Shown in pieces: positions 3,845 through 58,400 of a stretch of DNA of 64,000 nt (its first letter is position 1; every line of letters starts with the position of its first letter). Made by a program: the position numbers and the translations under genes. Source of the stretch: Leptogorgia sarmentosa (Eukaryota); assembly GCA_964658305.1 (NCBI GenBank), contig OZ210885.1, positions 5,208,001 to 5,272,000 on the forward strand, given 5' to 3'. Under the pieces are notes generated by a model, which saw only the letters and a program-made list of their open reading frames with translations, was not told where the DNA came from and ran no database searches.

Positions 3845-4409
3845 AATTATTCACTTTATAGTATTCTCAATTTTGATTGGTCAATTTACCTGCAAATAAC
3901 TGCGTGCAAATAATAGTCTGAGCATGCGCATTTGTTAAAAAGGTTGCTCACCTGCAAATAATAGTCTGAGCATGCGCATTGCGTCACTTTTTTGTAAACA
4001 ATGGCGGCTCGTTTTCCTAAACTATCAGAAGACGAGCTGTCTTGTTTACTAGAGGAAAAAAATTCAGATGATACAAAAAAGCCACCAAAACGGCCGTCAG
4101 TGTCTTCCCGGCAATATTTAAAAGAAAGAAAAATTTAAAAGAAGAAGGTTTTTTCTGTAAACCAGTATTATTTTTTTATGAAATAAAATTTGTATGTAAA
4201 GCTCGTTGTATACGTCTACCTTGTAAGTATGCTTTGTAAGTGAATAATAAAACAATTATTGGACGAGATCTCGCAAAATATCGCGATTTTGTCGATGGCT
4301 CGCAGATCAATTATTTGCCTCTGCCTTCGGCATCGGCAAATAATTGATCTGCTCGCCACCGACAAATCGCGATATTTTGCTCGACCTCGTCCAATAATTG
4401 ATAATTATT
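3845..4409 (+). mobile_element. Non-autonomous Crypton-like hairpin element, copy 1
   Basis: 560-bp unit repeated in tandem. ATG at 4001 starts a frameshifted MAARFPKLSEDELSCLLEEKNSDDTKK-ATKTAVSVF-RQYLKE fragment resembling Crypton/DUF3504-type N-termini (recognised from memory, not searched). End IR ttattcactt / aagtgaataa; 148-bp palindrome 4253-4400; aattatt at both ends. Confidence 0.6.
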
Positions 4410-4973
4410 ATCACTTTATAGTATTCTCAATTTTGATTGGTCAATTTACCTGCAAATAACTGCGTGCAAATAATAGTCTGAGCATGCACATTTGTTAAAA
4501 AGGTTGCTCACCTGCAAATAATAGTCTGAGCATGCGCATTGCGTCACTTTTTTGTAAACAATGGCGGCTCGTTTTCCTGAACTATCAGAAGACGAGCTGT
4601 CTTGTTTACTAGAGGGAAAAGATTCCGAAAATACAAAAAAAAGCCACCAAAACGGCCGTCAGTGTCTTCCGGCAATATTTAAAAGAAAGAAAAATTTAAA
4701 AGAAAAAGGTTTTTTCTGTAAACCAGTATTATTTTTTTATGAAATAAAATTTGTATGTAAAGCTCGTTGTATACGTCTACCTTGTAGCTAAGTATGCTTT
4801 GTAAATGAATAATAAAACAATTATTGGACGAGGTCGAGCAAAATATCGCGATTTGTCGGTGGCGAGCAGATCAATTATTTGCCGATGCCGAAGGCAGAGG
4901 CAAATAATTGATCTGCGAGCCACCGACAAATCGCGATATTTTGCTCGACCTCGTCCAATAATTGATAATTATT
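4403..4973 (+). mobile_element. Non-autonomous Crypton-like hairpin element, copy 2 (hairpin centre inverted relative to copy 1)
   Basis: Direct repeat of copy 1 at offset 560. ATG at 4561 gives MAARFPELSEDELSCLLEGKDSENTKK, then a frameshift in an A-run. Palindrome 4818-4964. Confidence 0.6.
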
Positions 4974-55400: not shown

Positions 55401-58400
55401 ATTCGCCCAAATGCAGTAACACTCTGAAATATAAACGATACAAATGAATGAGAAATAGACGTTTCTAGAAATTGTTGACGTGTCCAGAAATATTTGACGT
55501 TTCTAGAAATTTTTGGTGTATTGCGCTCCACGCGTTCATGCACTACAGATGTCATAATTATGAGTTTACACTCGAAATAACGGTTTTTCTGGCACGACGC
55601 TGTCTGGAAGGCTCTGTTACACGATGCAATTATTCTTGCAACTTACGTCGCAATTCTACTATTAAGAGATATGAAATTGGCAAGTACGAGTCTTCATTAG
55701 ATTTTCCTAACGAATTTTTTACAAATGAAACATTCTTCACTAATTTACATGTCTTGAAAGAAGAATTGCGTTTCAAGTTGCAAGAAAAATTGCACCGTGT
55801 AACAGCGGCTGTATTCATCCGTTGCATTCTGTGTTTTGTTTAGCAGAACAAATTTCGAAAATTAATATGCAGTGCATACATAATGACGGATACGACCTGA
55901 GAATACTCACAGAAGAGATCTCCAGACACGGCAGTTTTCCAACTTGAGCCCCAGTAAAGCCATATACGGAATTAGCGCTTACTTTCAAAGCCAACTGTCG
56001 CCCGTCAAGCACCTACAAACACACAAGAAGATTTGCAATCAATTAAGCTGTTTAATGAATCAAAAGCATGAGGAAAATGTCAACTTACCTTCTTACGAAA
56101 TGGATCAGTTTCATTTTTCAAGTCCAATTTCGCCCTGAAAAAAATAGTAGCATAAGCAGCGGGTAGGGGGCACAGCCAGGGTGTTGAGATTGTGGGGGGG
56201 GGGGGGACACAGCACCGGTCGAAAAGACGAAATCCCCAGGGCGGTTTGGGGCCCCAAAACGTTTTGATTTTTAGGGTGTGTAAAACGCTACTTTTAGCAT
56301 TTTCAGGCCGGTCTAAACACATATCGAAGATCTGTCCCAGCAATAAAGGTCGTATAATAGAGGGTGAATAGAAACGCCTGATGCAGTTTTCCACTCAATA
56401 ATGTTTACTCACTTCTTTCTTGCTCCCAACAGATCTTCCAAAATCTCTGGCAATATTCCTTTTCTTTTTGTAGATTTAATGAAATAACAACCACAAGGTG
56501 TCTTGATGTATTCGTCAGGCTGAAGGCTGAATTAAAATATTTTGTGAAACTTATTAATAATTCAAGAGAAAACACAGAAGAAATCATCAGCGTGAAGGAG
56601 TCTGTATATGTGATGCAGATTTTGGTTGATTTGCCTTTAAGTTACATTGGACAAACATAAATTAAATAAACATTTTTCATGACGTCAAACGGGAAAAGGC
56701 CGTCATGGATGTCGCATGGAGGAATCGGATTATTCCTCAGAAAACAGTATATTGATACTTACTTTTTAATGCTGTTTTGATTAAGCAATGTTGTATAACA
56801 CAAATTATGCGCCATCATGATAGAAGGGTACAAGGATGAGAAATCCAAAGTGGCAATAGGAGAATCGTAGTACCTAGATAAAAAAATATTCTATTATGCA
56901 AATTCTCTATTAATTCTGTTATGCAAATTCTCTATTAATCTACGTTTTCGCTGTGATTTTTAGTGCAAGTTTCTACTTTTCATGGATGTGAACGAGTAAA
57001 TAGGTCACAAATATTCAGGCGAGGAAGCACGCACTCAGCACATTCGCTATTATTATATACCAATCGTCAAAGTTTCCCTTTTCTTGTGTTTCATTGGTGG
57101 AGTGCGTATCACGTGAGAGTGACAAAATTAGACTGTCTCCCTCGCATCAGCAAGAGAGGGAGATAATACGTTATTCACCGGTGAACAACAAAAAAAATCA
57201 CGTGCGCCATCACGTGAAGACGTGACCTTTGGACGACCTGCTAATGCTTTAATTTAATTCAACATTTAAAGAATAAAATATTTCGTGCATTTTTGTTCAC
57301 TTGTTCCGCTTTATTTGTCGTTTCTTTGACGATTGGTATATAATAAAGCTCTTATTGACTGGGCCCTCGAGAAACCAGTGTGTTGTGTGGACCCTCGACC
57401 ATCGATGTTTCCCTCGGCTTCGCCTCGGGAAACATCGACGCTCTCGGGTCCACAAAACACACTGTTTCCCTTGGGCCCAGTCAATAAGTGTTAATTAATC
57501 CACTCGTTCACATCTACCAAGAAGGAAAAAATTGCAGCATTGTAGATATGAGGTTAACAGGCGTGTTACAAGGTGTTCCAACAACTTGTAATCGTGTGAA
57601 TAACAGGTTTGTTGCAACTGGAGAAAATGGCAAAATTAGGAATTTTTTGAAACACCCCGGATAGTATCCGAAGATCATTTAAGGACATACTGACCCTTTC
57701 TCTGGCTCGATTACAGTAGCACCAGTGTATTCGTCACCAGGTTCAATTCTCTGAGCTGGCATCACCAAATCTTGTGTTTGGGCCTAATAAAAACAGTCCA
57801 ATATTCATTACAACTGTGGATTAAACCACGAATCTTAAGCCCTGGGTAAACTAGGAAATATTGTTGTGGAAACATTTGGGATGAACTAGTCTAAAATATT
57901 GCTTGCATGATGTAGCATCATTTTTTTCTCCGTATTTATTCTTGCGCATGCCTATTTTGCTAGAAACATGTGGGAAACATTGTTGCGGACACAGTGTTTG
58001 CTTCCATTGCTTTTTCATGTTTTCCAGTGCGGGAAAACTAAGAAACATTGCTGTGGAAACATTTGGGGTGACCCAATCTAAACTATTGCTAGCATAATGT
58101 GACATCACCCCCCCCCCCCCGTATTTGTTCTTGAAAGTTTTTAAAAGACTACAGAATCTAACAGACAAAAAATACACAGCAGGCAATATAAAATGCTGTG
58201 GTAATCCCCTAGGCAAGATTTCAAATTTAAAATCGCTCATTTCGTATTGTTTTTATCACAAAATAAAATTGTTGCATGAATATTTTTTTACTTTTATTTC
58301 GTCGCTATATAACAAAACATTTAATTTCTGTTCTCTCGGGAATTAGATAGCCTTGTTTTCCCTCGAAACGCAATGTTGAGTCTCTCGGGAGAGCAAAACG

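Follow-up and report, generated by a model that had tools for sequence, protein, structure and literature searches.

Several short repeats in a 64,000 nt stretch of the Leptogorgia sarmentosa genome (assembly GCA_964658305.1, contig OZ210885.1, positions 5,208,001 to 5,272,000; hereafter the window) differ in sequence but end alike, which raises the questions of what mobilizes them and what purpose their ends serve. An earlier note had described three such families, and all three were located with one common layout, comprising a left inverted repeat (IR) of 11, 12 and 23 bp in families 1, 2 and 3, respectively, an internal partner IR, and then a palindrome of 150–190 nt that reaches the right end. 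The 138–180 bp given for the palindrome in that note proved to be its total length in nucleotides, the hairpin arms measuring approximately 70–95 bp. The shared layout is real and far beyond chance. Families 1–3 are almost certainly non-autonomous deletion derivatives of CryptonA-type tyrosine recombinase (YR) transposons, and such derivatives likely move via a folded single strand, with the subterminal repeat and the hairpin base holding both ends (probability roughly 0.6). The elements that carry the argument are as follows, in window coordinates.

3846–4404, plus strand: family 1 copy a (F1a), almost certainly a non-autonomous CryptonA derivative
3846–3856, plus strand: left IR of F1a, 11 bp
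3876–3880, plus strand: ATTGG box of F1a, a likely relic of a recombinase promoter
4001–4135, plus strand: recombinase remnant of F1a, first ~45 codons, frameshifted (N-terminal profile E 3e-4 among 20,104 peptides)
4238–4248 and on to 4404, plus strand: partner IR and then hairpin of F1a, with three TC/TC loops and a TTC tip at 4326–4328; GA/GA and GAA are on the minus strand
4391–4414, plus strand: head-to-tail junction of F1a and F1b, exceeding the internal mirror copy by 2 nt
4405–4968, plus strand: family 1 copy b (F1b), core flipped, with GAA at 4890–4892 and two GA/GA on the plus strand; outer arm homogenized
4561–4696, plus strand: frameshifted recombinase N-terminus of F1b (profile E 2e-4)
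51398–51736, plus strand: family 2 full copy, with left IR at 51398–51409 (12 bp), ATTGG at 51442–51446 and partner IR at 51535–51546
51551–51730, plus strand: family 2 hairpin, TTC tip at 51640–51642
57050–57494, plus strand: family 3, with a perfect 23-bp IR (57050–57072 and 57324–57346) and ATTGG at 57093–57097
57347–57494, plus strand: family 3 hairpin, TTC tip at 57419–57421, GCGAAGC on the minus strand

All three families contain a CCAAT box, as the earlier note had it, in the form of ATTGG 33–45 nt from the left end. The region 3845–4973, given there for family 1, has the family 1 layout but is a head-to-tail dimer of two copies that are 94 % identical. Three of four runs supported the left end of F1a, with 14–19 contigs having loose ends at 3846, and the right end was placed from the dimer junction. 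Because GA/GA and GAA lie on the plus strand in F1b and on the minus strand in F1a, the core of the second copy appears to be flipped. For family 2, the full layout was evident at 51398–51736 but not in the copies at 8881 and 23747, which lack the left hairpin arm. GAA tips were confirmed for families 1 and 3, whilst the 'GAAA-like' tip ascribed to family 2 is probably a C(GAA)G that has decayed, judging by the copy at 23.8 kb. The flipped copy, a recombinase remnant, the mirroring of the end junction by the IR and hairpin base, and two further families (family 4, 51936–52231; family 5, 4969–5298) had all been missed.

Imperfections in the hairpins were found to be strand specific. Four GNA-loop hairpins picked up by a scan of the window carried GA/GA on the loop strand in seven of nine flanked 2×2 internal loops, whereas neither GA/GA nor TC/TC occurred in any of the 12 comparable loops of 14 control palindromes from elsewhere in the window. 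Ordinary elements of foldback or terminal inverted repeat (TIR) type without GA/GA loops, at 34017–34631, 48498–48996, 33571–33774, 36986–37165, 39673–39874 and 61162–61312, served as controls. Alignment of the family 2 full-copy hairpin, which the scan missed, displayed GA/GA twice and AA/GA at the tip. We then drew on two wider sources: a scan of metagenomes for the tip pattern of the family 1 hairpin, which returned at least 120 loci (L017–L136), and a 12-Mb assembly with much coral-like DNA (G001), reached through the third (L139) of three loci in genome contigs, the other two (L137 and L138) being distant. Window and fetched loci together yielded 173 hairpins in 38 clusters, with those of families 2 and 3 gathered by similarity to the window copies and one simple repeat (L074) excluded. 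GA/GA accounted for 257 of 404 2×2 loops, a figure that includes one loop fixed by the search pattern in the selected loci, and AG/AG for two; outside the search motif, GA/GA made up 31 of 57 loops in the selected loci and 9 of 16 in eight unselected hairpins. It was present in 17 of the 38 clusters, every one of which included the CGAG/CGAG context, and a pyrimidine stood on its 5′ side in 496 of 514 instances. Such a 5′ pyrimidine context is the one favoured by tandem sheared G·A pairs. Tips were GAA, GCA or GTA, and across ten clusters other than that of family 1 the GA/GA loops fell on the GNA-loop strand in 50 cases and on the opposite strand in none. The enrichment of GA/GA in phase with the loop strand that the earlier note proposed is thus borne out, and mismatch types are not random across many sequence-distinct families. 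The GA strand was predicted to fold more stably in 72 of 82 hairpins, and folding of whole elements paired the left IR with its partner in family 3 (both strands) and family 2 (minus strand). The family 3 tip contains GCGAAGC, for which the relevant passage of PMC13037366 describes a mini-hairpin with a sheared G–A pair. Events that perfect the arms and erase mismatches were seen in F1b, L062, L105 and L107; the loops nonetheless persist across families.

Other features of these palindromes were also recorded. A second recurrent 2×2 loop, GC opposite AA, occurred in 11 hairpin clusters (L063:2–117, L136, L037, L181 and others), with the context CGCG/CAAG in the hairpins inspected; CpG decay of GA/GA does not explain it. 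One subfamily of the family 1 clade (L018:2275–2335 and 12 further loci) had an additional palindrome of 60 nt that is nearly perfect, is tipped by CAG/CTG and contains no 2×2 loops in its interior. The control element at 36986–37165 was flanked by repeated CAACCAAA. In viral contigs, the family 1 tip pattern matched 16 loci, all with an outer stem of 0–2 bp and mostly in GC-rich coding DNA, as expected of chance matches, and the family 3 pattern matched none; five YR-like viral loci were weak and were set aside. G001 is filed as a bacterial metagenome-assembled genome yet contains 23 Crypton-like recombinase matches and many coral-type repeats, suggestive of heavy host contamination. Pyruvate formate lyase-like frames adjoin a hairpin of the family 1 (F1) clade in another coral-like contig (L088:772–2263).

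Elements that retain a coding region connect the hairpins to a recombinase. The L018 element is whole and runs from a 28-bp left IR through CTGATTGG, a TATA-like box, a first exon, an intron and a frameshifted YR to the partner IR and hairpin; its coding strand bears the TC/TC loops and the TTC tip. Its CCAAT box lies upstream of the TATA-like sequence and start codon, and the box in the window families is likely what is left of the recombinase promoter. In this layout the YR coding sequence occupies the stretch from left IR to hairpin, and GA/GA and GNA are on the non-coding strand. A Pfam search of the L018 frames returned YR families only. The L181 element (1.85 kb), which belongs to a different hairpin family, holds an open YR frame of 326 residues; both it and L018, at approximately 1.9 kb, are taken up by the YR gene and have no room for a reverse transcriptase, gag, long inverted terminal repeats or a second enzyme. 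For family 1, a link to the same enzyme was evident within the window itself. Against an N-terminal profile built from eight database homologues of the L018 recombinase, the F1b and F1a peptides ranked second and third of all peptides searched, and the F1b score was reached by none of 1000 shuffles. L059 and L066 are also collinear with family 1, starting at its left end, and the coding remnant in them led to P0131, an intact protein of 411 residues to which the F1b peptide is identical at 17 of 28 residues (61 %) and in which R, K, HxxR, H and Y motifs were present by inspection. P0131, P0006 and the L181 frame all contained DUF3504 and Phage_integrase above cut-off, and each of the five catalytic motifs was kept in 106–116 of 121 homologues. 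The named homologues came from Montipora, Porites, Oculina and soft corals. Placement in the CryptonA subgroup is suggested by the domains and by the names that the homologous proteins bear.

Families 2 and 3 were tied to YR genes through their hairpins. In L185 a full-length but decayed YR is followed, some 270 nt further on, by a hairpin to which that of family 3 is 76 % identical over 160 nt; the left IR there is only partly recognizable. The family 2 hairpin is 72 % identical over 205 nt to that of L270, which shares the family 2 left end and retains part of a YR first exon (E 1.8e-6, searched within the segment). Four of 11 YR-bearing stretches in G001 (L181, L185, L189 and L190) had a GA-type hairpin downstream in the expected polarity. 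The autonomous partners found for these hairpins encode a YR and not a HUH Rep-helicase, and of the three candidates named beforehand (YR/Crypton, Helentron or Replitron) the first is the one superfamily that stands behind the families. An AlphaFold model of the YR (mean predicted local distance difference test score 74.9) matched QRICH1 and Cre in Foldseek; a wide structure search gave Cre (Z 15.9, root mean square deviation 6.9, 270 residues aligned), an archaeal Xer (15.4), QRICH1 (13.9) and an integron integrase (11.5), and a sequence search of PDB matched XerA only. A hairpin-telomere resolvase (protelomerase) was considered and rejected, with nothing in its favour from the fold search (Z 5.6).

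The element ends bear on how insertion proceeds within the F1 clade, to which all target and breakpoint statistics refer (12 complete elements of 360–559 nt, with flank sets of 25 left and 73 right). The target has A at −8 (22 of 25), T and A at −2 and −1 (19 and 23 of 25) and then W T R T, and the left flank base was A in 28 of 34 cases. Where copies share an identical 40-nt arm (13 in all), the right end is followed by T in four, A in six and G in three, and since this base varies among copies with the same arm it must derive from the host; the same core position at left ends was T in 31 of 34. These two observations indicate one breakpoint register, A^W, and no DDE-type duplication, in keeping with the earlier report of no conventional target duplication. 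The breakpoint falls within a degenerate 6-nt core, WAWTRT, which is present at both ends and whose two copies usually differ within the 12 complete elements. From what is general to YR mechanisms, two staggered exchanges without biased repair should give two registers, and a single register argues against them.

The layout can be written a … a′ b loop b′, such that the internal a′b is the reverse complement of the junction formed when a right end meets a left end. Joins of this kind were found at window 4391 and 4955 and in L051, L053, L063, L165 and L146, although L051 and L063 share one cross-family join that may be a single event, and L146 belongs to another family in which the spacer is not comparable. 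The junction spacer was 4 nt in six end-to-end joins against 2 nt in ten internal mirror copies, and for family 2-type ends the same 2-nt excess of junction over mirror is predicted. The join at 4955, between F1b and family 5, rests on a 9-nt A/T match and is weak. Elements thus stack head to tail, also across families, and as cross-family joins cannot arise by simple tandem duplication, the element ends themselves appear to serve as targets. One further locus (L237:1400–1633) has a tail-to-tail pair in which one element has entered the other at the base of its hairpin, and three consecutive elements occupy that stretch.

How such elements might move is suggested by four features taken together: the strand-phased non-canonical pairs, their persistence despite arm-perfecting, the internal mirror and the single breakpoint. 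One strand would fold such that both element ends lie on the internal mirror, and the YR would excise a closed, folded single strand, or dumbbell. The folded strand would then be inserted through a single strand exchange, with replication finishing the process, in the way integron attC sites and CTX phage recombine. The sheared G·A pairs and C(GNA)G tip may either speed the folding of one strand or mark that strand for the enzyme, and the two extra junction nucleotides would form an unpaired feature at the crossover. More tentatively, and with rather less confidence than in the folded strand itself, a large clade of animal CryptonA elements may be the eukaryotic counterpart of integrons, in which a YR cuts and pastes one folded strand, picked by its sheared G·A pairs and GNA mini-hairpin, while an internal stretch acts as splint and two unpaired nucleotides mark the crossover, and in which unrelated families would stack in cassette-like arrays because element ends are good targets.

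Several observations weigh against this account. Copies within a family, and families within a clade, are related, and hence the counts given above overstate independence. When stability is averaged by cluster, the GA strand comes out ahead in only 8 of 12, the window family 2 hairpin folds better on the TC strand (−72.1 vs −67.3 kcal/mol), and whole-element folding leaves the F1a left IR unpaired with its partner. Cores are sometimes flipped (6 tip-only inversions and 1 whole-hairpin inversion among 12 loci inspected), some possibly as artefacts of short-read assembly. On the TC strand, the 4-nt match between target and element (WTRT vs TTAT) sits 3′ to the breakpoint, and by the usual homology rule for YRs such a 3′ match points to exchange of the TC strand, not of GA. 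The YR fold lends no special support, because Cre and Xer are closer than integron integrase. No free intermediate was seen, and the same sequence signature would be expected from cruciform extrusion or protein-assisted folding, the single-strand step being our inference from it. As to the identity of the mover, the link of families 2 and 3 to a YR consists of hairpin similarity to elements of another genome and not of coding remnants in the window, and GA-type hairpins were found in only 4 of the 11 YR-bearing G001 stretches, two others lying at a contig edge and five having none; not every CryptonA-like gene, therefore, has or keeps a hairpin.

The most serious competitor, which we regard as possible but distinctly less probable, is the classical CryptonA route, whereby the YR excises a double-stranded circle by two exchanges and the hairpin acts as duplex or cruciform, be it an accessory site, a bend or a replication aid, with GA/GA setting only extrusion or directionality. 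A double-stranded circle is the working model in the portions of PMC13565253 and PMC3212892 that treat the mechanism, and it accords with the resemblance of the YR model to Cre and Xer and with a degenerate 6-nt core at both ends; CGAG on both arms could likewise be a directional duplex site. It sits poorly with the single breakpoint register, however, and leaves unexplained both the 50-to-0 strand phase of GNA and GA/GA and the retention of a junction mirror beside the hairpin. The mutational alternative, that GA/GA is a by-product without a role, is the least credible of those considered. CGAG is the reverse complement of CTCG, such that each loop amounts to a 4-nt inversion inside a palindrome, and template switching was indeed seen in the arms; but inversions would place GA/GA on either strand, which the tip phase contradicts, and the near absence of AG/AG, together with the absence of GA/GA from the 12 control loops, speaks against a by-product.

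Flipped cores bear on a further possibility, in which the 3′ hairpin primes synthesis on a released strand and the mirror templates the junction, in the style of DIRS-1 or a rolling hairpin, the flipped cores being flip/flop isomers. The geometry is that of the DIRS-1 internal complementary region (ICR) as set out in part of PMC7192593, and flips do occur. Yet they form a minority rather than about half: among the 120 loci listed, 101 were normal, 8 flipped and 3 alike in both arms, with 8 not assigned. Inspection of 12 loci found, besides the seven inversions already mentioned, three arm homogenizations, one complex case and one false call, and this variation in extent fits template switching at imperfect palindromes. 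As the observed junctions hold 2 nt that the mirror lacks, they were not copied from it; splint-templated synthesis of the junction is thus rejected, and hairpin priming as a whole is improbable. We judge it still more unlikely that these are non-autonomous Helentron (HLE2) elements moved by a HUH Rep-helicase, some with captured Crypton fragments. HLE2 elements share subterminal IRs, a 3′ stem-loop and the lack of a duplication, according to the relevant parts of PMC4067079 and PMC11417382, and no YR remnant was detected by tblastn in the window copies of families 2 and 3. Several hairpin families nonetheless have promoter box, start codon and YR in collinear order starting at the left IR, the break occurs at A^W and not T^T, and the arms of 70–95 bp far exceed the 5–10 bp palindromes that PMC4067079 gives for mite HINEs; for family 1 the Helentron reading is already largely refuted. 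A profile search of G001 with PF14214 (Helitron_like_N), run without a positive control, gave no match and carries no weight. The refuting outcome named in the earlier note, that the families turn out to be known Helentron entries, did not arise.

Known systems resemble these elements in part. Like the CryptonA elements treated in parts of PMC3212892 (Kojima and Jurka 2011), ours encode only a YR with DUF3504, have an autonomous length near 2 kb and many deletion derivatives of 300–600 nt, are present in cnidarians and lack TIRs and DDE-type duplications. They differ in having asymmetric IRs of 11–28 bp, a junction mirror, a 150–190 nt hairpin with strand-phased GA/GA and a defined target core. 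No terminal repeats were found for animal Cryptons in the sections of that paper concerned, which enter the terminal sequence as 'n.d.' in two CryptonA rows; fungal and oomycete Cryptons have direct repeats of 4–6 bp at both termini. Because terminal repeats are present here, and that text reports a failure to find repeats in other species, we file the elements as a CryptonA variant and not as typical members. Cryptons are likewise said to lack terminal inverted repeats in passages of PMC13465315 (2026) that do not mention hairpins or palindromes, and the pertinent section of a 2026 review (PMC13565253) treats the mechanism as undemonstrated and a double-stranded circle as assumed.

DIRS-1, as described in portions of PMC7192593, is alike in its YR integrase, in an internal stretch complementary to both adjoining ends and in tending to insert into existing copies. 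Our elements, in contrast, have no reverse transcriptase, gag or long terminal repeats, their 3′ partner is a short-loop hairpin, and whereas the DIRS-1 junction is there said to match the ICR exactly, the mirror here is 2 nt shorter than the junction. With integron attC and CTX phage attP they would share a YR acting on an imperfect hairpin, and they share unpaired features that differ by strand, one breakpoint and head-to-tail stacking of unrelated units; attC recombines as a folded strand by one exchange completed by replication (PMC3458562 and PMC5027507, in the parts that concern it). Unlike attC, however, autonomous units come with a recombinase and promoter of their own and there is no attI platform, the asymmetry lies in tandem G·A pairs and a GNA tip rather than in single extrahelical bases, and no integron-like feature was seen in the YR protein. 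Helentron, HINE and DINE-1 elements (HLE2; PMC4067079 and PMC11417382, in the passages on their ends) have the same order of left IR, subterminal partner IR and 3′ stem-loop without a duplication, but are described there with a HUH Rep-helicase, T^T insertion and a short stem-loop, in place of a YR, A^W and a giant hairpin at the very end.

The remaining elements of this kind in the window were as follows.

4969–5298, plus strand: family 5, a related element with its hairpin centre deleted, apparently joined to the F1b right end
8881–9102, plus strand: family 2 partial copy, without left hairpin arm
23747–23991, minus strand: family 2 partial copy, without left hairpin arm, missing from the paralogous stretch at ~31477
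51936–52231 (ends approximate), minus strand: family 4, rearranged, of the same kind; tip at 51996–52060, with GAA and AA/GA on the plus strand
61939–61976, minus strand: family 2 left end only

The paralogous site of the family 2 copy at 23747 also lacks approximately 30 nt of flank and is thus not a clean empty site, and contigs aligned across 3500–5300 displayed no clean empty allele of family 1; nor was one obtained at the loci of families 2 and 3. The window itself is eukaryotic, intron-bearing DNA of approximately 37 % G+C with tandem gene duplicates that encode TLDc, secretin-type and rhodopsin-type receptor domains. A unit of 5–6 kb that includes TLDc-domain exons is repeated within 9800–20100 and 40700–45700, as a tandem pair plus a single inverted copy, and a secretin-type seven-transmembrane receptor gene is tandemly duplicated at 21300–32100, with the family 2 copy at 23747–23991 in one unit only. 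Exons of a family B DNA polymerase, which we take to be delta-like, lie on the minus strand at 55300–61600, and family 3 is apparently inside one of the introns. A minisatellite with a 32-nt unit and pronounced strand skew lies at 6597–8356, and an inverted-repeat element containing a tandem array of 76-nt units at 52560–53114.

In sum, the elements form a CryptonA variant whose end structure appears to be new, and the single-strand mechanism proposed for them can be tested. A search of open PubMed Central and bioRxiv literature found no description of these ends, although Repbase or Dfam may already hold the families. Crypton transposition has never been shown by experiment, and animal Cryptons have been described without terminal structure; as the ends now define a substrate, a target consensus and the junction to be expected, and with P0131 among the intact enzymes available, direct experiments become possible. 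The hairpin structure further provides a way to classify abundant coral repeats with a layout resembling Helentrons or miniature inverted-repeat transposable elements. If a eukaryotic YR does act on a folded single strand, this mode of recombination would no longer be limited to bacterial integrons and CTX phage, and Cryptons would be linked to DIRS elements by a common end-joining design.

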